Notes under the pieces: model-generated
Database searches by the model: none
Told to the model about the DNA's origin: nothing
What the model saw: only the letters and a program-made list of their open reading frames with translations
Assembly (NCBI GenBank): GCA_010093995.1
Contig: ML992513.1
Coordinates: 803,203-867,202 of the forward strand
DNA: 64,000 bases
From: Elsinoe ampelina
Lineage: Eukaryota
Reading direction: 5' to 3'
Shown: piece after piece, positions 6,801-45,029 of the stretch
How positions within the stretch are numbered: the stretch's first letter is position 1
Layout: each line of letters starts with the position of its first letter
Made by a program: the position numbers and the translations under genes

Positions 6801-6849
6801 GTATAGTATACTTACTATATTAGTCCTTATATTATAAGCTTAAAAAGTA

Positions 6850-9999: not shown

Positions 10000-10195
10000 T
10001 ATTATAAGCTAAGACATAGATTACTTAACCTATAGCTATTATTATAAAGAAATATTAAGATATATAGATAGTATTATAGATAACTAATATAGTAATAGAC
10101 ATATATAACGTAATAGACTAGTAGCTTTAATATAATAATAGTAATAAGGCTAGAGTATACCTACTCGATACTAGGAAGTAACCTATACTATAAGA
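10000..10195 (+). repeat. 5' LTR of element X
   Basis: Direct repeat of 44672-44867; starts TATTATA (RIPped TGT..). Confidence 0.88.
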
Positions 10196-10480
10196 TTAAT
10201 AATCTTATCTAGGGAATATCTAATTTATAGTTAAGGTTCTATTAAGTATTACTTATATTTAGTTATATATATTAAAGGCTATTCTAGCTTCTATAGAGGT
10301 TTAGAAATATAGAGTTATATATAGTATATATATTTATAGTCTATAGCTGTTTTTATAGTATAATATTATATTTACCTAGAATTAATAACCTACTAGTATT
10401 AAGAATAATACTATTTTTAGTATACTACTACGTATTAGAACACTTAAAAGAATTTACTAGGAATACTTAAAAGAATTTAT

Positions 10481-19400: not shown

Positions 19401-21783
19401 AGTAGCTTCTACTTAATAACGACTAGTATAGAGTCTTCTTTATATATAACTTAGCTATACTTATAGTTAATAGTAGCTCTATTAGCCTTAAGCTAGCTAA
19501 GGCTAAGAATAATATTAAAATAGCTAATATCTATAATATAGAAGGTAGTAAGAGTATTTAGCTTACTAGAGATAGTAGTAGTAAGAGAGACACTATAAGT
19601 AACTTATTCTATTAGAACACTATTATAGGCCTAAAGCTAAATAGAGCTAGCTAGTATTACTAGATAGCTAAAGCTCTTTAGCTTATTAAGGACGTTATAA
19701 TTAACTATAGCGCTAATAAGTATACTAGTATTAATAAAGGCTTAAAGTATAATAGTATAAGAGTAGTTATAGAAGTTATAAATAGTAATAGGAGTTATAA
19801 TAGTAGAGATATAGTAGCTAATAACACTATTTAGTAACTATATACCTCTAGATCTATCTTAAATTACTCTTATTCTACTAGAGAATAGAACTTATTCTCT
19901 AGCTACTTATTTCTCTAGTTAGAGAGGTTAGTAGACTTATAGTCTACTTCGGGGTTAAACTAAGACTAAACTAGATCTAGTTTGTAAGCTAAACTAGTAT
20001 TAACTTAGTTACTTAATTTAGCTAAGTAATTCTAGAGCTACTATATCTCTTTTATAGTACTAATATATATAGAGCATATAGTAGCGTAAGTAGTCGTCTT
20101 AGAGGCGCTAGCTATATACTTAGTAGTAATATAGCTAGGCTTACTATATATATAATAGGTAAGTGTTTAAGTTAAATAGAAAAGTTATAGAGTACCTCTA
20201 GTAGTAGAATAGAAGGTAGCTAGAGTAGTAGATATAAAAGTAAAATAAGATATATAAATTAGTACTATAGTAGTATAGCTTATAGCTAGGCTAGAGTATA
20301 AGGCCTAAGTATACTTAGTAATAAGGTTACTCTACTAGATATTATAGTTAGTAGCGTAGGCCTTTATAATAAAGATAAAGAGGTTATTAGTATTAAAGTT
20401 AATAAGGGCGATATATAATTCGTTAGATATTTTCTAATATAACTAGTAGAGCTATTTATTCTTAGTAATCTTAGTATAAAGAGTATACTTATTAAATTTG
20501 CTAATAAAGAAGTTAAAAGAGATATTATACTAGAAGAGACTAGTAAACTAAGTATATATAGTAGCCTTATAGTTAGAGTTCTTAAAGTACTAGGCTAAGA
20601 TACTAAGAGTAGCTTTAACATTAAGAGTATTATCGCTAGTAGAGTCTATAATAAGAGTATATACTTCGCTAGAAAGACGTAAGTAGAGATAGATAAACTA
20701 AGTAGCCTTATAGAGAAATAGTTAGCGTTAGTATATATCTTATTTTTTATCTAGTACTTAAAAACCTTAAACTATTCTAGAGTACTACTAGAGAAGATAG
20801 TAAAGTCTAGTATCTTTTTAAATAACGTAGTACTATATATAGAGAAAGCTAGTATAGTACGTTTTATCTTAGCTCTTAGCTAGGCTAATTTAGCCTTAAG
20901 TTTACTAATATCTATAAGATAGTATATAGTTTAGATAGTAAGATTATTAGTAGTACTATTAGTAGTATCTAGCTCTATTAGAACGTTATTTAACTAGTTA
21001 TATAGATTAAGAGTATTAGTATATACTAAGTTATATATAGTAACCTATTTATTATAGATAGACTTAATAAAGATAAAGGCCTTATATAGAGTAGTTATAC
21101 TATCTATCTCTTATAGTCTCTTCTTAAGGTTAGTATTACTAAGGTAAATAAGGTTATAGTAGACTAACTAGACTAGTTTATTATTATTATTAGTAGAAGG
21201 TAAAGAGATCTTACTTATATAGTAATTGTTATTACTATAGTTAGAGCGAGCTATACTTAGTATAGTTAGTTATAAATAGATAGTATAAAAAGTTAATATA
21301 TAATAAAGAAGATATTAAAATTTTTAGCTAGTAGTCTACTTCCTTTAAGAGTTATCTATAACTCGACTTATTATTTTCTTCTTATATTTATAGTTTATAG
21401 TATTAACCTATATAGTAGTAGTAAGAATCTATTATAGTATATATAGGAACTATAGTTATAATAGCTTCTTCTTTAATTCTTTATAAGTAGTAGTTATTAG
21501 TAGTTATATAAGTAGTAGAATAACTAGATAATTTAATAGCTCTATCGCTTAGTCGTAGTTATTTTAAAGTCTCGATATAGTAATTATAGCTAGTAAGATA
21601 AAGAGGTTAATTATATCTATTTATTAAAATATTAAGACTTAGAAGAAGAAGAAGAAAACTAGTATATAAGGTATATATAATATTAAGAGTAAAGTAGTTA
21701 AAAGCCTAAGCTATAATACTAAGATTACGTAACTAATCTAAACTAAATCCTAACTAAATCTAGTTTATATCTATTTTATATTA
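10481..21783 (-). mobile_element. Ty3/Gypsy element E1 (full-length, interrupted by a Copia)
   Basis: 203-bp LTRs at 10481-10683 and 21581-21783, minus-strand PPT at 10684-10697. RT YLDDILI at ~13052-13075, RNase H ~12300-12650, integrase ~11000-11750, degenerate chromodomain-like ~10780-10910, gag ~20000-21400. Flanks TTTAT/TATAT (one mismatch). Confidence 0.9.
13106..18427 (+). mobile_element. Complete Ty1/Copia retrotransposon (RIP-inactivated) inserted in the RT of E1
   Basis: 201-bp LTRs at 13106-13306 and 18227-18427, perfect TSD AAAGT, PBS GGTTATAAGCC (RIPped GGTTATGAGCC) after the 5' LTR. Copia domain order: protease LDSG.SNH (~14761), WHRRFAHL (~15301), integrase (~15480-15950), RT KARLVARGF.Q and VYVDDI (~16790-17190), RNase H (~17670-18140). 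Confidence 0.95.
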
Positions 21784-23981: not shown

Positions 23982-26442
23982 ATAATTTCTACTAGTGTCT
24001 AAGTAGAATAGAGTTAGTCTATAACTATAGAACTAGAAGAGAATAATAATATAGAAATAAGAGTAGAGGCTAAGACTACTAAACTAGGTAGAGATACTAC
24101 TACTAGGTAGAAGAGAGTACCTAAGACTTATTAGTTTAATAAGGTACTTTAATAGGCTATAGATCCTTAAGATACTATATATTTACTACTAGATTCTAAT
24201 ATTATCTTATATATAGATACTCTCTTTAGAATATTCTAGTCTCTCTTCTATATTCTATATTAAAGGTTTAATAATCTAGATCTACTAGATAACGAGGTTT
24301 CTAAGCTCTTTTACTCTTATTACTTAACTATAAATCTCCTTTAGTAGTCTAAGAAGCTAGTAACTTTTAATAATAGTTAGAAAGTAGAATAATAAGAATT
24401 ATTAGAGAAGCTAGTTACTATTATAAGTCTAAGGATTATTATTAGTCTTAGATATAATACTTATTCTATATATACTCTACTAGATAGTAGTACTAAGTAT
24501 AACCTTATATTAACTAACTTAGCTATAGAACTTAGCCTTCTAGTATAAGAGATTAGTATTAAAATACTTAAAGTAACTAGTACTAGTTTCTTTTTAGAAG
24601 CTTATATAAATATTATAGTAAATATTAGAGGTGTAATAACTAATACTTACTTCTTACTAATAGACTAGAGGTCTAAATATATTATTCTTAAATATTCTTA
24701 TAAGTATAAGGTCTATCTCTTATTCTATAATATAGATAATAGTTCTTAGTAAGGTACTATCTAGTCTAAGAATAGAACCTATAGAGTTACTTTCTAAGGT
24801 ATTAAGTTAAAGAAACTAAAGAACTACTTATTCTATAAGTTACTCTAGGTATTAAGGTCTTTAAATAAGTAAGTAGTATTAGTCCTAGTAAGAGTATTAT
24901 AAGTATAATACTAAAAGAGTTTTCTTTATCTCTAGAGAGTAGTTTAGTTTTAGTATAGACATTTAAGATTAGTAAGTGTATAGTATTAGTAAAATATAAT
25001 CTAAAATATAACCTATAGTTAGGTACTAAAAATATAATATTTACTAAAGAATAAAGAGATAATTAGGTAAAATTAGGTAGCTCTATAGAAGTATCTAAAT
25101 TTAAGCCTAGCTTAGATCTAGGAGCTAGAAAGTTTTACTAGATATTAATATTTACTAAATCTAAACCTAGCTTAGATATAGAAAGTATAAGAAGTATAGA
25201 AGTAACTAAATTACGTTATTAGTTTATTCTCTCTCTAGATAGATATAACTTAGAGTTCTAGACCTTCTAGAAGAATAACTAGTTTTCTCTTCTATTAGCT
25301 ATAAAGCTTAGTCTCTAAAGGTAAGTAGATATAGCTAGAGTAGCTATAAGAACACTCTATAAGTAGAAGAATAAGAAGGTATAGCCTATAGATATAGATA
25401 ATAGTAATAGATCTATACCTAGAGGAAATCTATACTAGTAAAGATACTATCTAGAATAAGAAGTCCTTTTTCTCTTTAAATCTATACTCTTCTATAAATA
25501 CCTTATCTCTAAGTTCTCTAATATTAACTCTAGATTATAGCTAATAGATAAGTACTAAGCTAAGCTAATTCTTAAGGCTAAGGTCTAGCTATAAGAGAAA
25601 GAGTTATTTATATAGATACTACTTAATTATAAGGCTAGTTTAGCTTAGAATTTCTCTAAGATTAGATATATCTAACTTAAGGTAGTACTAATATAGAAGA
25701 TATAGACTATACTATATACTCTATAGTAAGAGTCTAGGTTCTCTATACCTAAGTCTCTAATACCTACTATAGTAAATATAGTAAGGAACTATATATTAAA
25801 TAGGTTAGTAGAGTAGAGCTATATATTATACTATAATCTATAGTTTTTAGTAAAGAAGAAGAATATACTAGTTAAGGAGAAGAAAATAGCTTAATATTAA
25901 ATAGTTAACGTAGTAATATAGATTAATAGAGTTACTATTTAAGACGCTAATCTCTCTCTATTAGTTAATAACTTCTCTAAGTCTTTTATAGGTATATAAG
26001 TTACTTCTCTTATAGACTATTTCTCTAGGTATAACTAAGTTTCTCTAGTAGAAGAAAGTAGAGATATAATATTCTTTATAATACCTCTTAGTCTTATATA
26101 GAACACTACGTTATTATAAGGTACTACTAATTCTATTACTTAGTTCTACTAAGTTAATAATACTATCTTATATAAATATATTCTCTATAATATATAACTC
26201 TTTATAGATAATAATAAAATTAAAAGTCTAAGATTAAACTATAGTAGAGAGGAAACTAAGTCTAGTATCTATTAGTTTATACTTAAATATATCTAAGCTA
26301 TTAACTATACCCTTATAGATATTAAGTAAGTAGAGTATACTATCTTAGGTACTAAATTCTAGTTTCTATAAGTAGACTTAAGTATAGTTAGGTTCTTATA
26401 TAATACTTAAAGAAGGTACTTTAATAGTATAAAGGTAAAGAA

Positions 26443-26914
26443 TAGAGTAGTTTTTAGGTACCTAATATAACCTAACTAGACTCTAGATTTAGCCTAATAG
26501 AGTTATATTACTCTATAAAAATTTTACTTTACTTTCGCATTTCTCGTAATTTACTATATTAATCTTAGCTAAATCTAAGTAATATATATATTATTAGAAT
26601 CTACAAAAAAATGTATACTAAATAATATATAGTATATTTATATAATCTAAAAGCTTAATTTTATATAAGTATTTAAAAAGTTTAGCTTTCTTTCTAAATT
26701 TAGAGTTTTATATTATATAAGTATACTATATACTATTTAGTGTACATTTTTTGTAGATTCTAATAATATATATATTATCTAGATTTAGCTAAAATTAATA
26801 TAGTAAATTACGAGAAATGCAAAAGTAAAGTAAAATTTTTATAGAGTAATATAACTCTATTAGGCTAGATCTAGAGTTTAGTTAAGTTATGTTAGGTACC
26901 TAAAAACTACTCTA
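26443..26914. mobile_element. Non-autonomous long-TIR element (MITE/foldback), hAT-type, inserted in RT of X
   Basis: ~204-bp inverted arms (26443-26646 and 26712-26914) around a ~65-bp spacer; 8-bp TSD GTAAAGAA/GTAGAGAA. Removing it restores KVEKIIKWP in X pol. Confidence 0.92.
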
Positions 26915-29900
26915 GTAGAGAAGATTATTAAGTAGCTACTATATAATACTACTATAGAGGTATACTTATTTCTTAAAGTCTATATATACTATAGGCTATA
27001 GGTTTAGAACTTTATAATTATAGCTAAACTCTTATATTAATTACTCTATATAGAGGTAGTATTTATATAGAATACTATAGCTTAAGTATTAATAGATAAG
27101 CTTAAGGTAGTCTTAATATCTCTACTAGCCTTAATATTTATTAACTATATAGATAAAGCTAGAAAGATTATTCTAGCTATAGATACTAGCCTTTTAGGAT
27201 AGAAAGTAGTACTAATATAAGTTAATAAGAGCAATCTAAGACAATAGTATATTATTTATTTTAAGTCTAGAATATAGTCTAATATAGAGTAAAAGTATAA
27301 TACTAAGAAACGTAAGTACTATAGGCTACTTAAAGTATTATAGAAGGTTAAGTTATATCTCTATAGCGTTAGTTTTATAGTAGAAACTAATACTAACACT
27401 CTTATAGTATAACTAAATAAGTCTATAACTAATCTTCCTAGATCTATTACTATATACTAGATTATATAGCTTTAATTATTTATATTTAATATCTAATATA
27501 TTTCTAGTACTAAGAATTTTATAGCTAATAGACTCTTATATAGACTAAGGTTTCTATTAGATAATATAGAAGAAGCTTATAATAGAGATATTAAGAATGT
27601 TATTAATAATAAGTTTTTCTCTATAGATATATAACTACTATAGATTAGAAATATTCTTAAGTAAGGCTATAGTAACTAATTAATTATAATTATAAAATAC
27701 CTATATAATCTTTAACGCTCTATAGATATAGATATAAAAGAGTTTATCTAGTTTAAGTATAATACCTATAACTTCTTAGTAAAAGAAAAGTACCTATATT
27801 AGTAAGTATATAAGAAGTTACTACTATAAAGAGTTATAGACTAGAATATAGAGTATAAATATATAATATAAATAGTATATAATAAAGAAAAGTATAAAGA
27901 ATAAGAGGGGACCTAATATAAAGCCTCTAATAGATATTAGTAGCTAACTATATATATAGACATTTAATATTATATAGAGATATATAATAAGTACTAGAGA
28001 AGAGTATAGAAATACTCTACTAAAGAGCTTAAGACTTTAGGCGTTTCTACTCTTTATATAAAGTAGTATATTAATGTTGTCTATATATTAGTCTCCTAAG
28101 GTAAGAAGTATATATTAGTAGTAAAAGAAGCTATAAGTAGTTAGCTAGAGATATATAGACTTACTACTACTAATATAAAGGCTATTACGAGGTTTCTCTT
28201 TAAAGATATTATAATAAGGTATAGTACTATTAGTAGTATTATCTTTAATAGAGAACTAGAGTTTAAGAAAGCTATTTACTTAGTATATCTATAGTATAAT
28301 ATTAATTATATTATTATATTATTCTATAATCCCTAATCTAATAAGGTAGAGTATAGCTATCTAAATATAGTTAATAGCTTTATAAAGTTAACTAATAACA
28401 ATAATACTAGCTAGATATATTACCTTTATATAGTACTATAGGTAGAGAGAACTACTACTAACTATATTACTAGCTAAACTATAGTAATACTTATATATAG
28501 TAATAATATTATTCTTCTAGTTAAGTTTAAAATCTATATATAGTATATATAAGATTAGACAACTATTTAAATATATAAGGACCTACTTACTATATATGCT
28601 TATTAGCTTTAGCTATAAGATAATAACTTAGAAGAGATAAGAGTAAGAGTACTTTATCTATAGAAAGAGTATAAAGATATATAGAACTTAAGTTATAATA
28701 TATAAAGAGAGTAACTAAAGATTAATTATATAGTATTAGTATATAATTTATAGCTATAAAAGATCTACTAAGATAAGCTAAAGAATTAGTAGAGAAGCCT
28801 ATACTAAATTATAGTAGTATATAATTCTAGGTACTATAAGCTAGCTAAACTATATAGGTACTAACTCTCTAGAACCTATATATAATAGTAATTAAAGCTA
28901 TATTAATTAGTTAATAAGTATTAAATTAAAGCTATAGCTATTAGGTAAGTAATAAGAGAACTAGTAATTAAGATCTAGCTACTAGATAGCTTTAACTCTA
29001 AGAAGTATAAGTAATATAAGTAGAGTTTATTATTAGTATAAGGTATTTAGTGTTTTTATATCTAGAATAGATACTTAGTTAGTTAGAGAGAGGCGTTATT
29101 AGTAAATAACTAGCTACCTTTCTAGATAACGTAATAGAAGTCTTCTTATTCTTCTTCTACTTCTAGACTAATAGCTACTAGCTATAGAAGGACATTTAAA
29201 GTATATAAAGCTATCCTTATAGAGGACTACTATAGCTAATAATAGGTCTAAGAGTTATAGTTTAGTTATTAGAATTACCTATAGAGAGTAAAGTATATAG
29301 ATAAGAATAATAGATAGTTCTATATATAAGTCTAGCCTAAGGCTAAAGAAACTTCTAATCTAGATTAGTAGTTATATATAAGAAGAGAGAAGTATATAAG
29401 TAAAAGAAGAATATTTACTAAGGTCTAAGAGAGGTAAAGTTTTCTTTATAATTATAATTTCTTATATTTATAATTAGTTTTAGTATATTCTTTATTTAAT
29501 AGGTTTATAAATTCTTCTTATATAATAGATAGCTAGTTATAGAAGCTAAGGAGATAAAGTAGTAGCTAGGAGAAATAAAGAGATAGCTATAAACGAGATA
29601 TAGAAGAAGTATTAGAGTTATAAGGCACTTAATTATAACTAGTAAAATAAGAAGTTAATTATGTCTATTTATTAAGATATTAAGACTTATAAGAAGAAGA
29701 AGAAAGCTAGTATATAAAGTATATATAATATCGAGAGTAGAGTAGCTAGAAGTCTAAGCTATAATACTAAAATTATATAACTAATCTAAACTAAATCTTA
29801 ACTAAATCTAGTTTATATCTATCTTATATTACTACTTTCTCTCTTAAACGCGTTTACTCTTAAATACTATTATATACTATCTATTAATCTATTTTAGCCT

Positions 29901-31882
29901 TAGCTTATTTATATAAGAGTCTAAATAGTTACGTAGTATATTAGCTACTTCTTTAAGATTGTTAATTAGCTACTAGATAAGATTCTTTAGATATTTCTTC
30001 TAGCTTATATAGGTAACTAGCTTCCCTTATAATATATATATATTAATTATATTATCTACCTTATACTTCTTTTTACTATTAATCTCTATTAGAGGTAGCT
30101 CTTTAAAGACTTAGCCTAGAAGAGAGTTATTAGAGTACTTAGTTAGAAGATTAGCGTAAAACACTAAGTAAATTTGTTATAGCGCTAGTAGAAGCTCTAG
30201 CTTATATAATAGCCTTAAACGCTTCTTTAAGATCTTATATAGACTAACGTGTTTTAGTAGTAGCTTTAGATTACCTTAAAGCTAAAGGTTTTTTATCGAT
30301 AACTAAACTAAATTATCTATCTTAAATTCTATTAGCTAGTAGTATTTATTAGCTTATTCTACTATACGTAATTAGGCAATAGCGAGGTTTACCTTAGTAA
30401 TAGATAGTGCCTCCTTTAGTTATTTAGTAAGTGCTTAGATATTAGCCTTATTAAGCTTAGCTCTCATTAATAGTATATTAAAGAGAGGCTAGAAGCTTAG
30501 CTTAGACTTATATTCTCTAGTAACTTTAAAGAGTAACAACTTAGTACTTTCTAATAGGCTAGTATTAGTAGAGAACTCTACTACTAGTAGAATAAGAGTC
30601 TAATTACTAAAGTATATAGCGTATAAATAGATAACTCGCTTAAACTTATAATTTATAACCTCTAATTAGCTATTAGTTTAAGAGTAGCTAGTAGTTAAGA
30701 GCTTAGCTATAATTTTTAAAATCTAGTAGAGCCTACTCTATACGTTACTAACGAACTAAGAACTATAGTTAGAGGTAATACTATCTAGTAGACTATATAG
30801 TTTCTATATATAGAAGAATAATAACTTAGTAGTCTTAAATACTAAGGTCTTTCTATCTCTAGAGAAGTAAGAAATTAAGTGTTATTCCTTAGATAAACGA
30901 TTAATAATATAGAGTACTACGTTATAGCTATTAGCTAAAGGTAGACTAGTAACGAAGTCTATTATAATATATTACTAAGGCCTTTCTAGAATAGGTAAAG
31001 GTAATAGAAGGCTAGCTAGTAAGCTATAGTAAGCCTTTAAGCGTTTATAGTTATAGTAATTAGTAATAAACCTCTTAATAAAGTTATTATAGCCTAGAAT
31101 AAAAAAGATAGTCTTAATTATAGTAGCTATTTTAGTAGCTCTAGTATATATATAGTTCTTTAATATATAGATCTCTTAGATAACCTTTATAGCTATTAAC
31201 TATAGTACGAATAGTTAGCTAGCAACCTATAACATCCCTTTATTAATAGTAATATTAGTTAATAGTAGCTATTTTCTCTTTAGAAAGGTCTCTATTATAT
31301 AGTAGATGTCTCGAACTATTTTACACTTAGTGTTCTATAAGTTAGTATTATAAACTATCTAAATATAGTCTACGCTAGTAGTTTAAGCTAAGCTAAAAAC
31401 GAGGTAGTTTTACTTCTATAGTAGTATAGCACTAAGGTAAGAGTTAGAGAAGGTATATCTTATAGATAATAAAGTACAATTAGATAGTATTATAAAGGCT
31501 AGCCTTAGTAATACTAGTATTTACTATCTAGACAAGGTTAACTATAGTACTTATATAAGGTAAGAACTATTCCTATATATATATATTCTTTACTATATAC
31601 TCTATATACTCTATATACTCTATAGTAAGAGTTAGAGGCAATATAGAGTATATGTCCGCTAGTAACTTATATACTCTATAGTTTCTAGAGTAAAGCTACT
31701 AGAGAAGATAGAGAACTAAGTAAATATTAAGCTAAGTTACATAATAACCTTAGTAGCTTAATTAGTCCTAACGTCTCTATACTCTAGCTGTCCTACTAGT
31801 TTATAATATTACTTTTCTCCTTTAATCGAGTTATTCTAATAAGTAAGTATTTCTTTTTATCTTTATACGCTATATACTAAAT

Positions 31883-32430
31883 ATGTCTCCTAGTTGTCGA
31901 AGGCATAGTAAATCTAGTATATCTATATAAAAGAACCTCTTAGAGTTTATTAAATTATTTAGAACTAATATACTATAAGCTTACTCTTGTTATAAGTTAA
32001 AAGAGCTAGACTATAAAGTCTATATTTAGTCGGGTATTTATAGCTAGTATATTATAAGTAACTACTTAGGTTATAATATTTAAGTAATAAAATTAAAATA
32101 GTAGTATTTCTAGTCTAAATACATTTATTTACGAAAGAAATTAGTTATAGCTAAGGCTACTAGAAAGAAAGCTAAAGAAGCTTATAAAAAGGTAAAAGAG
32201 GCTTACTAAAGAGCTATAAGTAATAAGCTTCGCCTATATAAAGAGATATAGAAATTAAAGAATAAGGTAGAGAAAGTAATTTCTCTAGAGAAAACTTATA
32301 TTTAAGTTCTAGAGTAAGAGGAAATACTATTATTAGTAGATCCTATTCTACTATAGGATTAGTAATTATTTATACTCGACTCTAATTAGAGTTCTCTATT
32401 TAGTAACAATTAGAGTACTTCTATTAGCTA
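31883..32430 (+). pseudogene. Antisense accessory ORF of E3: Zn(II)2Cys6-like cluster plus coiled coil (RIP-destroyed)
   Basis: In-frame ATG at 31883. TAY (ex-TGY) codons at 31982, 31991, 32012, 32039, 32048, 32072 give C-x2-C-x6-C-x8-C-x2-C-x7-C, followed by a K/E/A-rich heptad-like stretch. Confidence 0.7.
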
Positions 32431-34943
32431 AGTAGTCTTCCTTAAGTATTCTTGTTTTTATTTAGTGTTAGTAGCGTTAGACTTACCTAGTTAGTTTACT
32501 TAGGATAGGTTTTTAGTTTAGTAATTTAGAATTACTTACGAGGTAAGGTGTTTCTCTAGTTTCTATATTACTTTACTATACTAATGTCCCTTCTAGTAAA
32601 TAAGATAGTAGTGTTTTTCTTTTATAAGTTTATAATGTAAAACTCTTTTAATCTTATACTATAGCTCTTATGTTTCTTTATTTAGTTTAATAGGTCTAGG
32701 TACTACGTCTTATAGTACTTTCTCTAATAGTAATATATAAAAGACTAAGTAGATTCTTATATACCTAGGTAGTTCTAGTTTATATACATTTTTATTTTTC
32801 TTTTCTAGGATCTTAAAGAGTCCTAGTTTAGTATAGTTAAGTTTCTTACTTAGTTATTTTATTTTAATGTTTTTACTAAGGAGGTAAACTTTCTCTCTCT
32901 TCTATAGAATTAGTCTTATAATTCTCTTCTAGTTAGTAAACTCTACTATTCTTTATAATATAAATACTATATCGTAGTATAGCTAGTTATATAGTTTCTT
33001 AATATTAGCTACTAGTATATTAGTATCCTTAGATATTAGCTTAATTCTAAGTATGTTATAGTATAGATCTAGGTATATTCTATAGTTTATATAGAATAGT
33101 AAAATTCTATTTACTAACTTTCTATTATTAATAGTAAGCTCTATAAGTAGTAATAGTATTACTTATAAGTCTTACTTATAGTTTAGGTAGTATTATAGGT
33201 ACTACTCTAGTACTTAATTTGCCTATTTAGTTTATTTGTCCGTTTATAGATAAAAGAAAGTTAATAGCTTATATTTAACTCCTAGTAGATTTATAAATAA
33301 TTACTAGAATTATAACGTAAATAGCTTATCTCTATTAGTTATTAGGTCTTATAGTACTCTATATTATAAAACAATTATTCGGAGAAAGATAAAGGCTATA
33401 TCCTTAGTAGTTACTATTGTCTTATATAGTATAAAGTAGTAATACTTTATAAACCTATCTACTAGAACTAGAATACTATTATACCTTACACCTATAAGAG
33501 ATTCTTCTAATAATAGTAGAGGTTCTATAAAGTCTATTATAACTAATTACTATAGTTTATCTAGTAGTAGTAAGAGTTATAGTAGGCTATATAGTTTATG
33601 TCGGGAGTACTTAGACTTATAGTAAGTATCGTAGGCGGCGATATATATCTTAATATCGTTTTAGAGTTCTTTCTAGAGGTAGTTTTATATAAGAAGTTTA
33701 ATAGTCTTATTAATTCTGCTATGTCCTACTATTAGGTTATTATAGTATATTTAAATAACTTCTTATTTCTATTCTTACGTAAGCTTCTAGGTAAGGCTAT
33801 ATAACTACTTTACCTTTAGGTACTTATAGACTAAAGCGTTATCTTACTACTTTAGTATAGAGGCCTCTATTATTGTTATATTCTTTAAGTAGTCTAGTTA
33901 TTAGCTAAGAGCGTCTACTTTACTATTCTCTAATTCCTTAATATAGTAGATCTAAAAGTTATAGCTTATAAGTGTTTCTAACTATCGAACCTATTGTCTA
34001 TTAAGAACCTTAGTTATTGTCTAATATAATAGGTTCTTATAGTTAGTATAGACTTATATAGGTAAGGTTATTTCTTCTAGGTATACTCTTTACTTACGAA
34101 ATACTTTTATAATTATAAGTAACTCTTTATTATATATATTATAGTTAAGTTTAGGTCTAGTTATTTTTCGTAAGTAGTATATAATTAGGTAGCATTATTC
34201 TTCTACGTTCTTCTATGCTAGATATACTTCTATTATAAAGTCTAAAGTATCTATTTCTAGTAGTGCTTATTAGTCTAGGTTAAAGAGTACTAGGATAGGT
34301 ACTATTATAAGTCTAAGCTTTAGCTTCTTAAAGGCCTACTTACATTTTTCGTTAAAGATAAAGCTAGTTTCTTTCTTTATAAGGTTAGATATTAGCGTAG
34401 CTACCTTAGAGAATTCTTTAATAAACTTATAGTAGTAGTTAAAGAACTCTAGTAGCGCTTAAATCTCCTTAACTATAGTAGGTTCTAGCTAGTTATTTAC
34501 TAACTTAATCTTTTTTAGGTTAGGTCTAATGCTATTAGTAGATATAACATAGCCTAGAAATTATATCTTATATTTATAAAACTTATACTTAGAGAGCTTT
34601 ACTAGTAGGTCTTTTTCTTTTAGTTTCTATAGTACTTTATAAATATGTCTTATATGTTTATTGTATATCTTTAAGAAGATAATAATATTATCTAAATATA
34701 CTAAGACAAAGTCGTTAAGGTATTCTTATAGAGTATTATTAATTAACTCTTAGAAGGTTATAGAAGTATTAGTTAACTTAAAGAGTATAACGAGGTACTT
34801 ATATAGACTCTATTACGTTCTAAAAGCTATTTTCTACTCCTTACTCTTCTTTATTTATACTTAATAATAAGTATCTCTAATATTAATCGTAGTAAACTAT
34901 TTAGCTTTAAGTAGTTAGTTTTAAAGTTTGTCGATCCTTAGTA

Positions 34944-35033
34944 GAGAATAGTAATTCTTCCTAGTAAGTATATTAAGTTTCTAGTAATGAGAATAGTAAT
35001 TCTTCCTAGTAAGTATATTAAGTTTCTAGTAAT
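34944..35033. repeat. Perfect 45-bp tandem duplication inside E3 RT
   Basis: GAGAATAGTAATTCTTCCTAGTAAGTATATTAAGTTTCTAGTAAT twice. Confidence 0.9.
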
Positions 35034-38000
35034 TAATATATATTTATAATATCTTATTCTTTTTAGGTATAAAAAGCACTCTATATATAATAGGTAATTT
35101 TAATAGTTATATAAATTCTTTAAGTAAGTACTTGTTAATATAGTTCTTAAGGACATTCTTCTCTTATTTCGATAGTAGTATAAGACCTTAATAGTATATT
35201 AGGGATTTACTCTCTTTAAAGAGTATTTTATAATTCTATAGTTTATATTAGAGTAAGGCTATAATGTCTTTTCTTTCTTTAAATAAGTCCTTAAAGTCTT
35301 TATATTCTAGCGGAAGTACTTAATTACTTACGCTAGCGATAGCTCTAACTATTAGTCGTATCTATACTATTCTTATAGTTAGTATTCGTAGAGCTAATTA
35401 TACTCTCTATGTCTTATAATTATACTTAGGGAATTCGAGTGTTTCTTTAATCTAGTCTATATCTAGATTATGTTATTAAAGCTAGTCTATACTAAGTACT
35501 ATATTATACTATATATTAACTATATCGATTAATCGTTTTTCTATATATGTTTTAATTTTAATTATAACGCTTTATAGTTCCTAAGTAACTTTCCTATTCT
35601 TCCCTATAGGAGTTCTATTCGCTATAGTAAGTAAGTAAGGTAACTCCTTCTAGTATTAATAAAGTTTAAGCTAATTAGTAACTATTATAGAGACGTAGCT
35701 ATAGTTAGCTTCTAAATCTATTATTACTCTTACCTTATTCCCTTATATCTTAACTTCTAGTATAAAGTAGTTTAATATATAAATCTTTATTACGTTAAGG
35801 CTTTAGCTAGTGTTATTATCTTACTTTACTAGGCGACAACTAGCTAGTTTTTTATTATTATAGCTCCTTAGATAAGTAGCTAATTCCTTCCTATACGTAT
35901 CTACTATTAGTACTATACCTATTAGGCTAGTTATATCTTATTACTATTTAATATAGTAAAGTAGACTTCTAGCGCTTAAGTTCCTTAATAACTATAAAGT
36001 CTAATAATTCTCTACTAATTATACTAAGTAGTATTATATACTTATATTAGTATAACTATTCCCTCTAGATAGAGCTATATATTAGCATTAAAGACAAATA
36101 TAGGTTAAGTAGATTTATCTTGTCGTATTCTACTCTAGTAGTAAGTATATATTATTATATAATTTCTCTATATTTCTATAAGGTATACCTTAAGTTGTTT
36201 GCCTAGTAGTAGTATATTGTTATTATTATTGTTATTAGATAAGTTCTTATTTATGTTATTATATTATAGTTGTTTAGTATATTCTTTATTATATCTCTCT
36301 TTATTACTACTACCTCTAGTATAGTTATAATTAGTAAGGCTATACTAAGTATATTCTCTTACTTAGCTATAAAGGATAGTACTATCTATTTTAATTACTA
36401 AGAAGTCTATAGTATATTTAAGACTAATAGTGTCTTCTCTAAGTATATTATATAAGTAGATAGTATAGTACTATTTATAATTTAGATTTGTATATTTCTA
36501 GAGTAATATATAATATACCTTTCCTTATAGTTTACTATAAAAGCTAAAGGTAAGACTACTATATTATTATATAGTACTTACGTCCTAATACTTCGTCTTA
36601 ATAATTGTATATTAGTAATTGTTACTAACTACCTTCTAAGGTTAGTTAGTGTTACTACTAATTATAGAGAGCTCTTTTAGGTTAAGTTTCTAGTCTAGCT
36701 ATTTTATTAGTTACCTACGCTTAGATAGCTTATATAGAAACTAACTAGATCCTTACTTGTCTAATAAGTAAATATAATAAGAGTTATTATAATATACTAT
36801 CTATAATAGCGTTACGTATTAGCTTTATTATTTACTATTAGTTATAGAGATATTAAGTATAATATTTAGAGAGAATTCTCTTACCTCTTAAGTCGTTATA
36901 GACTTCTTCTATATTTCCTTACCTATACTAAAGGTCGTTAGGACTTCTATAGTAGTATTAGCCTTTATTTCTACTAGCCTAGTAACTATTATATATAATT
37001 TATCAACTAGCGCCTCTTATTAGTAGTCCCTAGCCCGATACCTAGGTCTTTTATACTTAAAACATAGATTGTCTTATCTATACTTCTCTCTCTCTTTTCT
37101 ACTAAGGAACTTTTCTCTATAGCTATAGCTTTATACCTATAAGGGGCAGCCTTTATATATAATATTAAGTTCTATAAAGTCTCTATAGTTTCAGGAGAAA
37201 CATATATATCTAGTATTTATCTTATATCTTCTATAACGTTCTATATATCGTTTATAAAGTTAGTTATTAATAGTAATTATAGTGTCTACTAGCTCCTAAA
37301 GGCTATTAGGCAGCTTAGGTATTATTTAGTCTTTAACTAAGTCGCTTAGTCCTTAGTAGAATACTAAATGTTTAGCACTATTATTCTAGTCTAGGTATAT
37401 TACGAGCTATTAGAACTAGGAATAGTACTAGGCTATAGACTCTTATTATTATAGTTATTAGATCTTTGTCGCGGCGATATGTTTCTTATTAGATATATTA
37501 AAGACTTACTTAATCTTTGCCTAGAAGATACTAAAGCTCCTAAAGATAGCCTTTATATCTAGGCTTAGTTATCTATCTAGGTAGCTACTTATATAAGACT
37601 TAAACTACCCGAAGGTAGCGCCTTTAAAGTGTATTTTAGTATAGAGAACCTTTACTACGTCGTTAGTATACTTATCTTCTTTTAGAGTAAAGAAAGCTTT
37701 AAGTTAGATAAGAAAGTACCTTAAGTAGGCATAGTCTCTATAGAAGAGTTCTATCTCTAGCTTAGGCTTACTCTATCTTTTCTCTATACTAAGAGACCTT
37801 CTATATTCGCCCGAGGTTAAACTAGTAGTAGATATATTATTAATAGTAAGCTTTTCTAGCTTACTAGTAATCGAAGATACTAATAGTAACTTAGAGTAAG
37901 AGTTACTTATTAACCTCGTAGCGTGCTATACTATAGTAAGAGTAGTTAAAATGTTATAAACTATCTAAATATAGTCTATACTAGTAGTCTAAGCTAAGCT

Positions 38001-41000
38001 AAGAATAAGGTAGTTCTACTTCTATAGTAGTATAGTACTAAGGTAAGAGTTAGAGAAGGTATATCTTATAGATAATAAAGTATAATTAGATAGTATTATA
38101 AAGGCTAGCCTTAGTAATACTAGTATTCGCTATTTAGATAAGGTTAACTATAGTACTTATATAAGGTAAGGACTATTCCTATATATATATATTCTTTACT
38201 ATATACTCTATATACTTTATATACTTTATAGCGAGAGTTAGGAGTAATATAGAGTATACGTCCGCTAGTAACCTATATACTCTATAGTTTCTAGAGTAGA
38301 GCTACTAGAGAAGATAGAGAACTAGGTAAATGTCGAGCTAAGTTACGTAATAACCTTAGTAGCTTAATTAGTCCTAACGTCCCTATACTCTAGCTATTCT
38401 ACTAGTTTATAATAGTTAGCTTTAGCTACTTCTTTAAAAAGAGATAAAGGCTCTTCTATAGCTATTATAAGTACTACGTAGATACCTAGTTTAGTAGCTA
38501 AAATAGGCGCTAATATAAGTTATAAAATAGAAAGTAAGATAGGTAATAAGCTAGATAATAAACTAGTTTATAAACTAGATAACGAACTAGATACTAGTTT
38601 AACTTAAGCTAGTAGTTAATATAGTCTAGCCTATCCTAACTTAGTAGCTAAGCTAAAATCTAGTTAGTAAGCTAAACTAGAACTAAACTAGTTCTAAACT
38701 AGAATAGGGATTTTACTAAGCTAGATTCCTAGATTTAAGCTAGGCTTAGATCTAGATTCTAGCCTTTTAATTAGCTATAGTAGCTTCTACTTAATAACGA
38801 TAGGTATAGAATCTTCTTTATATATAACTTAGCTATGTTTATAGTCGATAGTAGCTCTATTAGCCTTAAGCTAACTAAGGCTAAGAATAATATTAAAACG
38901 GCTAATATCTATAATATAGAAAGTAGTAAGAGTATTTAGCTTACTAGAGATAGTAGTAATAAGAGAGATACTATATATAACTTATTCTATTAGAACGCTA
39001 TTATAAGCTTAAAGCTAAATAAGGCTAGCTAACACTATAGAGTAGCTAAAACTCTTTAGCTTATTAAGGACGTTATAATTAACTATAGCGCTAATAAGTA
39101 TACTAGTATTAATAAAGGTATAAAATGTAATAGTATAAGAGTAGTTATAGAGGTTATAAATAGTAATAGGAGTTATAATAGTAGAGATATAATAGCTAAT
39201 AATGCTATTTATTGTCTATATACCTCTAGATCTATCTTAAATTACTCTTATTCTACTATAGAATAGGACTTATCCTCTAGCTACTTATTTCTCTAGCTAG
39301 AGAAACTAGTAAGTTTATAGTCTATTTTAGAGTTAAACTAAGACTAAACTAGATCTAGTTTATAAGCCGAACTAGTATTAACTTAGTTACTTAACTTAGC
39401 TAAGCGATTCTAGAGCTACTATATCTCCTCTATAGTACTAATATATATAGGGTATATAGTAGCGTAAGTAGCCTTCTCTAAAGTACTAGCTAGGCACTTA
39501 GTAGAGATATAGCTAGGTTTACTATATATATAATAGGTAAGTACCTAAGTTAAATAGAAAAGCTATAGAGCGCCTTTAGTAATAGAGTAGAAGGTAGCTA
39601 GAGTAGTAGGTATAGAGGTAGAATAAGATATATAAGTAGGAGTAGTAGTAGTATAGCTTATAGCTAGGCTAAAGTATAAAGCCTAGGTACGCTTAGTAAT
39701 AAGGTTACTCTACTAGATATTATAATTAGTAATATAAGCCACTCTAATAAAGATAGAGAGGCTATTAGTATTAAAGTTAATAAGAGTAGCACGTAGCTTA
39801 CTAGATATCTTCTACTAAAGCTAGTAGAGCTATTTATCTTTAGTAATCTTAGTATAGAGAGTATACTTATTAAACTTGCTAATAAAGAAGTTAAAGAAGA
39901 TATTATACTAGAAGAGACTAGTAAACTAAGTATATACTATAGCCTTATAGTTAGAGTCCTTAAAGTATTAAGCTAGAAGAGTAAGAGTCTTATTAACGCT
40001 AATAGTATTATTACTAGCAGTGTCTATAATAAGAGTATATACTTTACTAGAGAGGTATAAGTATAAGTAAGTAATTTAGATAGCCTTAGTAGAGAAGTAG
40101 TTAGCGTTAGTATATATCTTGTTCTTTATCTAATGTTTAAAGACCTTAAACTATTCTAGAGTACTACTAGAGAGGATAGTAGAGTCTAGTATCTTCTCTA
40201 ATAATATAACGCTATATATAGAAGAGGCTAGTATAGTACGTCCTATCTTAGCTCTTAGCTAGGCTAGTTTAGTTTTAAGTTTACTAATGTTAGTAAGGTA
40301 GTATATAGCCTAAGTAGTAATATTATTAGTAGTACTATTAGCTATATCTAGTTTAATAAAGACGTTATCTAACTAGTTATATAGATTAAGAGTATTAGTA
40401 TATACTAAGTTATATATAGTAATCTATTTATTATAAGTAGACTTAATAAAGATAAAGGCCTTACGTAGAGTAATTATACTATCTAACTCTTATAATTTCT
40501 TCTTTAGGTTAGAGTTATTAAGGTAGATAAAGTTATAATAGAATAACTAGATAGGTTTATTATTGTTATTAGTAGGGGGTAGAGAGATCTTACTTACGTA
40601 ATAGATATTATTACTATAGTTAGAGTAAGCTATACTTAGTATAGTTAGTTATAAATAGAATAGTATAAAAAGTTAATACGTAATAAAGAAAATATCGAAA
40701 TTTTCGGCTAGTAGCTTACTTTCTTTAAGAGTCGTCTATAACTTAACTTATTATCTTCTTCTTATATTTATAGTTCGTAGTATTAACCTATATAGTAGTA
40801 GTAAGAATCTATTATAGTATACGTAGGAACTATAGTAGTAATAGCTTCTTCTTTAATTCTTTAATTCTTTATAAGTAGTAGTTATTAGTAGTTACGTAAG
40901 TAGTAGAATAACTAGATAGTTTAATAGCTCTATTACTTAGTCGTAGTTGTTTTAAAGTCTCGATATAGTAATTATAACTAGTAAGATAAGAGGTTAATTA

Positions 41001-41369
41001 CGTCTATTTATTAAGATATTAAGACTTAGAAGAAAAAGAAGAAAGCTAGTATATAAAGTATATATAATATTAAGAGTAAAGTAGCTAAAAGTCTAAGCTA
41101 TAATACTAAGATTATATAACTAATCTAAACTAAATCCTAACTAAATCTAGTTCGTATTTATCTTATATTAGTACTAGTAATATATATATAGAAAGACTTC
41201 TAATATAAGGTAAGTTACTAGATATAATATAAACCTAGTAGCTTACTATAGAGGTATACTTACTATAGCTATAGAAATTTTTTTATATTATATTAATAAC
41301 TATCTTATATATCTTTTATCTTTATTTTATACCTTCTATACTTTTATATATATATTATCTCTTTCTATA

Positions 41370-44300
41370 TAATACTAAAGTACTTTCTTTAAGCTTACTA
41401 GAGTAATTCTTTCTAATAATAAAGGTTTCTAGCTAATATATACTTTTCTAATCTACTATATAAGTCTTATATTAATAAGTTAAGTTTTATATACATCTCT
41501 AAAGAGATAGTAGATAATAATAAGTAGCTCTTAGCTAGCTCTAGCTTAGCTACTATTATAGCTAGGTTAAATAGCTAAAATAGTTAGTATACTCTTTTTT
41601 AGTATAGAGAATATACCTTTAATAATATTAATAATGTTCTTATATATATATACTACTATAACTCTAATATCTATATAAACTTTATTAACTATATATTAGA
41701 GATATATATCTATACCTAGACTCTATTTAATAATACTCTTTTTAATATTATTAGTACTATCTATAAAGAGAATATAATATTCTTAGATAATACTAGCTAG
41801 AAGAGTACCTTTCTAGAAGCCTTTATAACTTATAAAAGAGTTAGAGATAGAAGAAATAAGAGCTTAAAGTATAAGGTAGCTATTTTAAAGACTATCTTAG
41901 ATCTATATAACTTCTCTCTATATACTAAATAGTACTATAAGCTTACTAATACTACTCGTTAGAGGTTTAATTACTATACTAAGGACTAGATCTTCTACTT
42001 AACAATTAATATATTCTACTATACTACTATTATATATATCTCTACTACTAGTACTATTACTAGTTATAATATCTAGAGTACTAATAGTAAATAGGCCTAC
42101 GTTAAGGTTTAGACTAGCTAGCCTCTATAATTAAGAGACCTTACTAGTTTAGAGCTTATAGCTAACTATTCTAGCTACTAGGTTAAATACTATATATAGA
42201 ATTTACTTAGCTTCTTAGTAGAATTAGTTACCTCTATAGAAGTTAGCTATATTATAGAGAGAGAATCTTTAGTAATTACTATCTCTTCTATAGAGACTAT
42301 TAAGGTAGAGGCTACTATCTAAAATTAAAGATTAATAGCTAGTAATATAAATAGACTTACTACTATAGTAATTACTACTATAAGTAGTAGTTCTTAGATA
42401 ATTCTTAGTAATTCTATATCTAAGCCTAGCTTAGATCTAGAAGTCTACTATACTAAACTAGAACTAAGTAGCTTACTTTACTAGTCTAAGTATAATTACC
42501 TTACTATACTTAAGAATACTAATTAGAAAGAGACTATAATTCTAATAGTAGAGATAGCTATTAAGAATAGAGGTAAATTACTCTATAAGAGATACTACTA
42601 AGATAATAAAGAAGAAAAAGAAGAAGATACTAATTACTATAAAAGCTCTAGAGTAGTAATCTCTAACTACTTTATATCTATACCTATAAGGAAAAAGAGA
42701 AAGAGATATATAGTTAAAGAAGAAGATAAAAAGACCTATATATATAATAGTATCTTATAGACTATTAAGAGAGAGTTTAAGAGTTAAGAGCCTACTTCTA
42801 ACACTAAGAAGGCCTCTTTAGTTTATATCTAGTTATAGAAGAATATAGTAATAAAGGTAAAGGTCTACTATCTTTATACTTAAGCTCTAGTCTAGTATCT
42901 TTATTTTCTTACTAACTTCTTCTAAGATATACTTACCTACTATATTTACTACTAGTATACTACGTTCTAGAATAGTACTCTTAGTCTCTTTAGTATTTAT
43001 AGAGAGACTTTAGTATAGCTCTAGGCTTAATACTATTATATATATTCTTTAATAAAGTAAGGTATCTTTAAGTATAAGCTAAAGATAGTAAGGTAATGTA
43101 TTTCTAATAAGTAGAGGAAAGTAATTCTAGATAGTTTCTAAGAGAGGCTTTTTAAAGAGTAGACTACTAATAGAAATATAAGGCTAAGTATCTTTAAATA
43201 GTAGTTTAATAAGAAGAATAGTCTTACTATAATTTTCTTAGAGAAGATAGAGATATATTAATACTACTTTAAGTACTATATAGATAAGGCCTAGCTTAGC
43301 TAGTTACGTAATATGTTCTATTCTCTTAGCTAATAAGCTATATATATAGATCCTAGGTACTATTATATATATATTACTAGTTATTCTAATAGTCTTACTT
43401 AGTTAATCTTCTACTCTTACTATACTAAGTATACTTATACTAGAGACTATATATAGTTCTACTATATTAATATTAATCCTAGTTATCTTGTAGCTAGCTA
43501 TAGAATTAATACTATATAGAGTTCTATTAGTCTTAATAATAAGTCTAAGATAAACTTTACTCTTGTTATCTATAAGATATATTACTATATAAATAAGTAA
43601 GTTACTAACCTAAAGGAGTATAAGATTCTTAATAATACGCCTATTATTAATATTACTAATATATACTATATAGAAAAGAACACTAAGAAGTATAGAGCTA
43701 GTTAGAAGTACTTCTCTTATAAGGCTAGTAATATCTATCTTACTATACTATATACTCTATATAGTTCTACTAGTTCTACTAATAGAGTTCGTTATACTAT
43801 ACTTCCTTAGTTCTATAGGATTAACACTAATTATAAGACTCTTAAGTAATCTAAGAGTAGTATATATAGTTAACTTACTAATACTTATATATAGAAGAAG
43901 CTTAGTTCTTTAATATTCTCTAGTAAGCCTAATATATATAGAACTATTTATTCTACCTTTTCTACTATAGTATACCTTTATATTAATAGCCTAGTAGAGA
44001 ATACTCTTATTAGTTAAGCTTAATAGAATAATTCTACTATTATCAAGGAGGTTAGAGTTTTACTTAGTATAGATCTAAATACTACTATAGATAGAGTAAA
44101 TAATATTTATATAGAGATTAACTAGGCTATCTATAAGGCTTAGAAGAAGGTTATTAAGTATAAGAAGGCCTACTTTACTAAGGCTTATTTATTCTTCTAT
44201 TATAAGGAGAAAGGCCTTACTACTACTCTCTATAATAATCTAAATTCTATTATAACTAGTTCTTTAGATATAGCTATAGATAGAGAGCTAAGATAAGGAA

Positions 44301-44510
44301 CTTTCTCTAGTATAGTTACTATAGAGGAGAATAGTAAAGAGAATATTAAGTTATTTAAGAATAAGAATAAGAACTTAACTAGAGAGAAGTTAGCTAGATA
44401 GTAGTACTAACGTTAGAAGACTAAGAATAAGGTAGCTAACTATACTAACGTACCTATTATTATAGTTACCTATTATCTTCGTTAGTGTAGAAGTAATAGT
44501 TATATAGCTT
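41370..44510 (+). pseudogene. Extra ~1000-codon ORF of element X with a C-terminal PhyH-like Fe(II)/2-oxoglutarate dioxygenase domain (RIP-destroyed; ends approximate)
   Basis: One frame (position mod 3 = 2) reads protein-like at 41810, 42602, 43151, 43268 and 44129. De-RIP: GWLRNMF(H/Y)SLGQQ (43298-43336), F-R-H-I-D (His 43463, Asp 43469), QGS.SLDDE (43517-43543), PCKAGDIRLT.P.TPHGSTGPA..VRRT.LPWF (43715-43813; His 43760, Arg 43790). Confidence 0.72.
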
Positions 44511-44671
44511 ATTAAGAGAGATAGAGAGAAGTACTTTCTACGTAGCTAAGAGTTATCTTATTTAAGGTATTTAAGGAAAGGTAGCCTAGGTAGGTAAGTA
44601 TCTAGTATAGAGAAGTATAGAGTATTATTATTATTCGTGTCTAAGATAGACACTAGTAGAAAGAGAATAGT

Positions 44672-44867
44672 TATTATAGACTAAGATATAGATTATCTAA
44701 CCTATAGCTATTATTATAAAGAAATATTAAGATACGTAGATAGTATTATAGACAACTAATATAGTAATAGACATATATAATATAATAGACTAGTAGCTTT
44801 AATATAATAATAGTAATAAGACTAGAGTATATCTACTTAATACTAGAAAGTAACTTATACTATAATA
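44672..44867 (+). repeat. 3' LTR of element X
   Basis: Direct repeat of 10000-10195, preceded by purine tract AGAAAGAGAA. Confidence 0.88.
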
Positions 44868-45029
44868 ATAGTAGTTAAATAGTATAAGCTAGATAGTATA
44901 AGTTAGATCGCTAGTAGTTTACTAAGTAATTTATAGTAAGTATAGTTACGATTTAATATTAACTAGAGAAGAAAATATAAAGAGAGTAAAATTATAGTCT
45001 ATAAACTCTAGAAGAATATATAGGTATTA

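Follow-up and report, generated by a model that had tools for sequence, protein, structure and literature searches.

A probable third gene encoding a PhyH-clan dioxygenase in a mutated Ty3/Gypsy retrotransposon of Elsinoe ampelina

To our knowledge, long terminal repeat (LTR) retrotransposons rarely fix extra enzymes. In the orchid Phalaenopsis, Ty3/Gypsy elements of about 25 kb carry an extra open reading frame (ORF) for an AlkB-type Fe(II)/2-oxoglutarate (2OG) dioxygenase with demonstrated N6-methyladenosine (m6A) RNA demethylase activity; the accessible part of that report describes a recent acquisition and presents the case as an exception among LTR retrotransposons (PMC9289625). Fungal TET/JBP dioxygenases ride DNA transposons (Kyakuja-Dileera-Zisupton and others), and the accessible part of a survey notes none on retrotransposons (PMC12730594). 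Here we analysed a 64,000-nt stretch of DNA from Elsinoe ampelina (assembly GCA_010093995.1, contig ML992513.1, positions 803,203 to 867,202 of the forward strand), referred to as the window. Its region at 41.4–44.5 kb is very probably the third gene (ORF3), killed by repeat-induced point mutation (RIP), of a Ty3/Gypsy element of ~11.3 kb, named X, which belongs to a Pezizomycotina lineage with the order LTR - gag - pol - ORF3 - LTR and encoded a PhyH-clan oxygenase.

Like the orchid elements, X and its relatives are Gypsy LTR retrotransposons with an additional Fe(II)/2OG dioxygenase ORF. Unlike those plant elements of ~25 kb with their AlkB domain, as the accessible part of PMC9289625 describes them, the elements studied here are fungal, measure 10–12.7 kb and encode a PhyH-clan/DUF1479-like protein with N-terminal domains of its own, in pol lineages that are 20–50% identical. 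With the fungal TET/JBP carriers they have in common that a mobile element encodes its own 2OG dioxygenase, thought there to serve the element, whereas those carriers are DNA transposons and Helitrons and their dioxygenase belongs to another family (PMC12730594, accessible part). Literature searches outside Repbase, Dfam and subscription journals found no account of fungal Gypsy elements that carry a PhyH-like gene; an earlier note, made from the letters of the window without database searches, likewise knew of no Gypsy lineage with such an ORF. As judged from the sequences, Gypsy elements in several classes of filamentous ascomycetes have conserved, as their third gene, a predicted PhyH-type dioxygenase, with intact catalytic residues and about 500 further residues of unknown domains.

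ORF3 in the window

The first 46 kb of the window have a GC content of 0.21–0.30 and are followed by a block of 0.43–0.54; between 40 and 46 kb no ORF of at least 40 amino acids (aa) survives. Such an AT-rich, ORF-poor stretch is the picture of RIP in a filamentous ascomycete. To identify homologues, the stop-masked plus-strand frame of the region was used as a phmmer query in an exhaustive search of 1.84 billion representative proteins. This gave 178 proteins at E ≤ 1e-3, of which 44 were at E ≤ 1e-10 (best 9.9e-28), and all matches fell on query residues ~630–1040, that is, on the C-terminal third of proteins mostly 700–1060 aa long, or on fragments. A hidden Markov model (HMM) built from 26 full-length members of the family recognised the same domain in the window with 142.9 bits (E 3.7e-45; coordinates of all features are collected in Table 1). 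Word-indexed protein searches with the plus frame and with the antisense frame returned no match, because too few exact 5-mers survive RIP. Profile searches with stop-masked translations can nevertheless assign DNA that is saturated with RIP.

Comparison of the window with the family at 197 conserved columns revealed 61 identical residues, 96 that are reachable by C>T/G>A changes alone and 40 that are not. Identical and RIP-explained columns together amount to 157/197, versus a mean of 36.4 (standard deviation 5.2, maximum 53) in 1000 shuffles. The family motifs facing the window read F-R-H-I-D-x-N, I-Q-G-S-V-S-L-D-D-E and V-P-C-K-A-G-x-V-R-I-T-x-P-x-L-P-H-G-S...R-R-T-x-L-P-W-F, and the window residues at these motifs differ from them almost only by RIP-type transitions. 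The residues of the catalytic site are near-invariant in the family (His 59/60, Asp 59/60, distal His 59/60, Arg 58/60). At the corresponding codons the window now has TAT (43463-65), AAT (43469-71) and TAT (43760-62), each one RIP-type transition away from a His or Asp codon. HxD...H plus an Arg after the distal His is the pattern of the PhyH family, in which the Arg binds the C5 carboxylate of 2OG; by analogy, the family Arg, located ten residues after the distal His, would bind 2OG as well. The earlier note had read these features, namely HxD, QGS.SLDD, a KAGD-type motif, a distal His and an Arg ten residues on, from the window after reversal of RIP changes. They equal the conserved motifs of the family, and His/Asp/His at the predicted codons, set beforehand as a test, is what the family has. 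The window copy itself is dead through RIP, with 88 in-frame stops and with Tyr and Asn in place of its iron ligands.

Three-base periodicity is strong from ~41476 to 44475. Among the 1167 codons of 41171-44671, the plus-strand frame starting at 41171+3n contains 88 stops vs. 107 and 207 in the other two frames, and the codon-aligned antisense frame contains fewer, 68. The antisense frame of the X pol region (25201-28800) likewise has fewer stops than the true sense frame. Because antisense frames beat true sense frames here, stop counts alone cannot give the strand in RIP-saturated DNA. A choice of strand by composition was dropped, as stop counts favour antisense (68 vs. 88) and purine/pyrimidine codon classes are mixed, and the strand was settled by homology. 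We observed that in RIP-saturated coding DNA each sense-frame YRR codon amounts to a stop, and that the antisense can look more open (25201-28800, 41401-44100). The protein-like frame of ~3.1 kb proposed in the earlier note is backed by periodicity and by homology on the plus strand; judged by the periodicity and by a weak colinear profile match near the N terminus, its extent is about 41480-44475 rather than 41370-44510. The note's acidic/basic linker, with an N-terminal domain before it, agrees with runs of K and E in the translation and with the disordered acidic linker of an intact relative.

Domains and fold of the ORF3 family

The family comprises Pezizomycotina proteins of ~850–1150 aa, annotated as hypothetical or uncharacterised, with one Joint Genome Institute (JGI) entry labelled PhyH. 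Named members come from Venustampulla, Sclerotinia, Coleophoma, Rhinocladiella, Coccidioides, Penicillium, Kalaharituber and several lichen-forming fungi, and they represent Leotiomycetes, Eurotiomycetes, Pezizomycetes and lichen-forming classes. PhyH (PF05721) is the sole Pfam family matched, and weakly so: at E < 0.01 by 8 of the first 15 phmmer matches, three of them above the 22-bit gathering threshold, and at E ≤ 0.01 by 20 of 60 members. Proteins P0009 (36.1 bits), P0008 (22.8) and P0007 (22.5) and the ORF3 of locus L043 (25.1) exceed the threshold, and most others lie below it. No sequence match to PF07350 (DUF1479/Gig2-like) was found in the 15 or 60 members tested, the likeness being structural only, and the family profile gave only noise against PDB sequences (E 0.4–0.5). 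In the Atlas, the look-alikes were PhyH and Gig2-like clusters at 0.87–0.88, which we take only as a lead. These matches make the ORF3 family look like a divergent offshoot of the PhyH clan and not like an ordinary member of PF05721.

The fold was studied on the ORF3 of an intact relative, L014 (residues 470–930, L014:10045-11427), not on the decayed window copy. An AlphaFold2 model based on a 60-row alignment reached a mean predicted local distance difference test score (pLDDT) of 91.4 and a predicted template modelling score (pTM) of 0.86. Foldseek against the PDB returned 268 matches at E ≤ 1e-3; the matches listed are PhyH-clan dioxygenases, the leaders being DUF1479 (E 5.4e-8), EvdO1, SnoN/SnoK, proline hydroxylases, GriE and EctD. 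VIA-align, which is independent of Foldseek, gave 48 chains at Z ≥ 8, again led by PhyH-clan enzymes. At the top stood YbiU with Z 20.0 (279 residues aligned, 3.3 Å) and Gig2 with Z 18.5, followed by a plateau of PhyH-clan enzymes at Z 13–15; human PhyH scored 13.4 and PHYHD1 12.8. AlkB-type chains appeared at Z 8.0–8.1, and neither TET nor JmjC was present among the best 50 rows. According to the model, the C-terminal domain of ORF3 is a PhyH-clan double-stranded beta-helix, structurally nearest to the DUF1479 proteins YbiU and Gig2. The confident model, the PhyH-clan structural matches and the Pfam PhyH hits in part of the family sustain the suggestion of the earlier note that the region encoded a dioxygenase of this clan and fold.

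The best structural matches, YbiU (4rgk, 7twe) and Candida Gig2 (6akz), align over ~280 residues at 3.3–3.5 Å. Unlike ORF3, with which they have a sequence identity of only 11–12%, they are single-domain cellular proteins of ~400–450 aa, whose own substrates are unknown; in the accessible part of our source YbiU is counted among the uncharacterised E. coli genes. The ORF3 elements are a possible first biological context for this DUF1479-like branch of the PhyH clan. With the enzymes of PF05721 (human PhyH 2a1x, PHYHD1 3obz, EctD, SnoK/SnoN, GriE) ORF3 has the fold, the HxD...H triad and the Arg in common, whereas ORF3 proteins are two to three times longer and most of them stay below the Pfam threshold. 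A subunit of the trypanosome RNA-editing complex RESC (PDB 8fnc chain 14) also shares the PhyH-like fold with the L014 model (Z 14.8), and a PhyH-like fold can therefore serve in an RNA-binding assembly.

The N-terminal 515 residues of the L014 ORF3 were modelled as a confident helical domain (50–250), a disordered segment (253–380, pLDDT < 50) and a second helical module (390–510). In the family, the linker is acidic (median isoelectric point, pI, 4.5), and the basic module that adjoins the catalytic domain has a median pI of 9.8 and a charge of about +10 and carries a conserved C-x-C...C-x2-H set, probably a zinc site. The predicted ORF3 protein would then begin with a helical domain, continue through the disordered acidic linker and the basic helical Cys/His module, and end in the Fe(II)/2OG dioxygenase domain.

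Linkage to Gypsy elements and possible function

On the plus strand of the window, X pol is followed by ORF3 and then by the 3′ LTR. The repeat structure was derived from self-BLAST and a repeat-finding scan of the window. X is bounded by a pair of 206-bp LTRs that are 90% identical, and its net length is ~11.3 kb after subtraction of all nested insertions. One of these, the LTR element E2, lies between pol and ORF3; we place it in the spacer behind pol because coding periodicity fades after ~28.8 kb. A 5-bp repeat read directly from the sequence flanks E2 (GCACT 29625-29629, GTACT 41171-41175). Repeats and flanks agree with the earlier note, which had used this duplication to excise E2 and to join 41171-44671 to X pol within the X LTR pair. 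X pol was detected by tblastn with the proteins of relatives: the L014 pol covers 25595-26458 and 26894-28534 on the plus strand, and the match extends to 28747 with the L041 gag-pol. Pfam found RT_RNaseH at 27158-27424 on the plus strand (E 5.8e-7) and missed the reverse transcriptase (RT) and the integrase although tblastn finds both, a measure of how much sensitivity Pfam loses to RIP here. The order RT - RNase H - integrase in the L014 pol (Pfam, residues 332–472, 536–669 and 794–958) is met again in X, and in pol X is most similar to the ORF3-bearing elements (L014 pol, E 2.3e-33).

A scan of metagenome contigs gave 73 loci with ORF3 homologues, for which Pfam was run on 42 flanking ORFs and tblastn was used for pol. 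Pfam confirmed gag, protease, RT, RNase H and integrase directly upstream of ORF3 on the same strand in five loci (L014, L028, L031, L041, L043), and tblastn added L020, L023, L026, L029, L057 and L060, so that 11 of 73 loci have an upstream pol on the same strand (E ≤ 1.3e-10). LTR pairs enclose gag, pol and ORF3 in L014, L023 and L026. Two contigs close on themselves, with overlapping ends in L031 (1-207 = 10826-11032; unit 10,825 bp) and L041 (1-127 = 12660-12786; unit 12,659 bp), the outcome to be expected if assembly of a multi-copy LTR element runs through its LTR. The units of the relatives measure 9,975–12,659 bp. For genome annotation, ORF3 explains why some fungal Gypsy elements reach 10–12.7 kb. 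ORF3 is open in elements whose pol proteins are 20–75% identical, and close pol pairs mostly have a close ORF3, with the exception of L041 and L043 (pol 75% vs. ORF3 39% identical). A tree built from 50 domain rows shows Gypsy linkage across the whole ORF3 family; the window row has a very long branch (3.76) and stands, without support, next to the Gypsy-linked L023. The test set in the earlier note, that homologues should sit next to Gypsy pol inside LTR pairs, is borne out by the 11 loci, three of them LTR-enclosed; the gene is not exclusively Gypsy-borne.

Several observations weigh against our assignment of ORF3 to such a lineage and to such an enzyme. Only part of the loci that can be evaluated show the linkage: among 26 with at least 4 kb of upstream sequence or circularly permuted contigs, a strong pol is present in 8, a weak one (E about 7e-6) in 5 that are nearly identical, and the other 13 lack pol; moreover, a clade of 15 tree rows has no Gypsy-linked member. 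Because of the pol-less loci and this clade, the ORF3 gene also lives outside Gypsy elements; either Gypsy elements may have captured a host gene, or hosts and other elements may have acquired the gene from Gypsy. The N-terminal half of ORF3 matches the family weakly (colinear profile match 41615-41917, i-E 0.13); in the model this half has no Foldseek match at E ≤ 1e-3, and its best VIA Z is 5.4, on single helices. No Pfam match was obtained at E ≤ 1 in any of the six stop-masked frames of 41170-44671, a result that carries no information, since the RT and integrase of X pol escaped Pfam too. A gag was not detected in X by tblastn with the proteins of relatives (no match at E < 1e-3), and the flanks of X show no clear 5-bp target-site duplication after RIP damage. 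Finally, the nearest folds found by Foldseek and VIA-align act on small molecules or have unknown substrates.

The target-site result would also suit a different origin of the segment 41176-44666, as a piece of some other element or a host gene trapped between X pol and the 3′ LTR. Insertions are nested in this region in numbers, and by arithmetic the frames of pol and ORF3 do not run on into each other when E2 is excised. Yet pol, a spacer of ~0.3–1.4 kb, ORF3 and an LTR follow one another in the same order and strand in at least 7 distinct intact or decayed elements, no further repeat boundary is found within 41176-44666, the net length of X fits the units of its relatives and X pol is most like that of ORF3-bearing elements, so that we regard a foreign origin as highly improbable.

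The fold, iron triad and Arg of the ORF3 family, as modelled and aligned, are those of an active Fe(II)/2OG oxygenase, and in intact elements the ORF3 protein is likely to be an active oxygenase made from element RNA. We also think it reasonably likely, if somewhat less so, that ORF3 helps the element rather than riding as a passenger. The opposite view is that ORF3 is a small-molecule or free amino-acid hydroxylase, or an inert structural protein, without a role in transposition. The closest characterised folds among the matches listed are indeed proline, leucine and ectoine hydroxylases and natural-product tailoring enzymes, and the absence of pol from half of the evaluable loci suggests that the gene can persist without the element. 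However, ORF3 remains open and keeps its four catalytic residues across a pol divergence down to 20–50% identity, which is hard to reconcile with a neutral passenger. The ~500 extra conserved non-catalytic residues before the enzyme would be unusual for a metabolic hydroxylase, and conservation of HxD...H and the Arg in 58–59 of 60 members is unexpected for an inert protein. We consider a passenger role unlikely.

The basic Cys/His module and acidic linker of ORF3 would point to a macromolecular target; the module, which is basic throughout the family, is the sole hint of polyanion binding. Chances appear about even that the substrate is a macromolecule (protein or nucleic acid/chromatin) reached through the basic Cys/His module, and not a metabolite. 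A more specific proposal is that ORF3 acts as a nucleic-acid or chromatin demethylase or oxidase (on 5-methylcytosine or N6-methyladenine in DNA, methylated RNA or methylated histones) and shields the element from silencing by RIP or methylation. There are transposon-borne 2OG dioxygenases that play roles of this sort, namely the orchid AlkB-type m6A demethylase ORF (PMC9289625) and fungal TET/JBP (PMC12730594), as far as the accessible parts of these sources go. The basic module abutting the catalytic domain, with the acidic disordered linker before it, and the PhyH-like fold of the trypanosome RNA-editing subunit would fit this role, as would the hosts, since Pezizomycotina are where RIP acts, as the window shows. 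On the other hand, neither sequence nor the folds among the matches listed tie ORF3 to AlkB, TET/JBP or JmjC; Pfam gives PhyH only, and the AlkB chains score far under DUF1479 and the small-molecule hydroxylases in VIA-align. Moreover, the window copy is fully RIPed, so the enzyme did not protect that copy. A demethylase of this kind is doubtful in our view, and the data agree just as well with protein hydroxylation or a small-molecule substrate as with an anti-silencing role.

The widest form of this idea is an ancient, widespread Pezizomycotina Gypsy lineage whose active Fe(II)/2OG oxygenase, guided by its zinc module, oxidises marks carried by the DNA, RNA or chromatin of the element itself or disables a host defence protein, as a counter-defence against RIP, cytosine methylation and heterochromatin. 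We offer it tentatively, as a scenario with a small chance of being right. If it were true, it would involve a dioxygenase family for which no link to nucleic acids or chromatin has been known, and any service of the ORF3 enzyme to the element would open a direct way to study how retrotransposons deal with the genome defence of fungi.

Nested insertions and other loci

Table 1. Features of element X in the window and of ORF3-bearing relatives (relatives in the coordinates of their own contigs)
Feature	Position	Strand	Evidence
5′ LTR of X	9996..10201	+	90.3% identity over 207 nt to 44667-44873 (self-BLAST); repeat scan agrees
Nested LTR element E1, not part of X	10475..21783	+	LTR copies of 209 bp at 10475-10688 and 21575-21783
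X pol, RT part	25559..26458	+	tblastn, L014 pol residues 212-492 (E 2.9e-27), L041 gag-pol residues 1180-1464
X pol, RNase H and integrase part	26894..28747	+	tblastn, L014 pol residues 478-1022 (E 2.3e-33), L041 gag-pol residues 1477-2071
Nested LTR element E2, in X spacer between pol and ORF3	29630..41170	+	LTR copies 29629-29836 and 40963-41175
Probable ORF3 of X, RIP-inactivated, ~1000-aa protein with predicted C-terminal PhyH-clan Fe(II)/2OG dioxygenase domain	41480..44475	+	periodicity and phmmer; boundaries approximate
Acidic/basic linker of ORF3	42400..42800	+	K and E runs in translation; matches disordered acidic linker of intact relative
Conserved dioxygenase domain of ORF3	43061..44230	+	family HMM positions 467-863
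HxD iron-binding motif, now TAT-ATT-AAT (Y-I-N)	43463..43471	+	aligns to family H and D; both changes C>T or G>A
Distal His (TAT 43760-62, mutated) and Arg ten residues on (CGT 43790-92, kept)	43760..43792	+	family alignment
3′ LTR of X	44667..44873	+	self-BLAST and repeat scan
L014 element: gag-protease; RT-RNase H-integrase; ORF3	1501-4677; 4653-8294; 8638-11595	same strand	Pfam
L014 LTR pair enclosing gag-pol-ORF3	1289-1415 = 11654-11780		100% over 127 nt
L023 LTR pair enclosing gag-pol-ORF3	538-837 / 11181-11480		92% over 300 nt
L026 LTR pair enclosing gag-pol-ORF3	1573-1721 / 11548-11696		96% over 149 nt
L028 element: gag, pol, ORF3	ORF3 7054-10491	same strand	Pfam

Self-BLAST revealed a second LTR of 209 bp in four copies (10475-10688, 21575-21783, 29629-29836, 40963-41175), which defines E1 and E2 as nested elements of one kind. 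E1 contains a further LTR element of 5.3 kb at 13106-18437, with 209-bp LTRs at 13106-13314 and 18227-18437; a solo LTR of the family of this inner element lies inverted inside X, at 23767-23982 on the minus strand. The RT of X is interrupted as well: the pol alignment ends at 26458 and resumes at 26894, and exactly at this break there is a 472-bp palindrome (26443-26914; 89% identical to its own reverse complement over 473 nt), which looks like a small foldback/hairpin element inserted in the RT. As for the identity of X, RLG_Rolly of Leptosphaeria maculans (11,875 bp) was rejected as a candidate, as the LTR sizes in the accessible part of PMC3105345 do not match those of the elements studied here.

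Among the metagenome loci, eight (L026, L042, L057, L068-L072) have a GC content of 0.34–0.39 and hardly any long ORFs, so that RIP has degraded ORF3-bearing Gypsy elements in other fungi as well. L048 and L067 lie on one 250-kb contig as two partial dioxygenase-domain matches ~40 kb apart, which makes the gene multi-copy on that contig although no pol was detected.

The neighbours of pol-less loci are varied and include SNF2 and other helicases, Helitron, Plavaka, TPR/Sel1 and an unannotated ORF of ~1280 aa. Helicase genes adjoin several non-Gypsy copies in differing orientations: SNF2/Helicase_C in L003 (10990-15960) and L016 (3897-6628), and OrsD together with a DEAD-box helicase in L006 (4081-8648) and L038 (12640-17034). 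The ~1280-aa ORF is found in L005 (4481-8344) and L008 (518-4354), 1.4–4.7 kb upstream of the dioxygenase gene and on the same strand. Between them the two upstream ORFs share 24% identity, and Pfam recognises no domain in either; these loci may represent a second, unrecognised kind of carrier.

E2 itself holds an LTR element at 31346-38422. This inner element has 461-bp LTRs, and an inverted partial copy of it, 89–92% identical, is located at 61927-63180. The GC-rich gene island at 47–60 kb is flanked by these two members of one repeat family (31346-38422 and 61927-63180) in opposite orientation.

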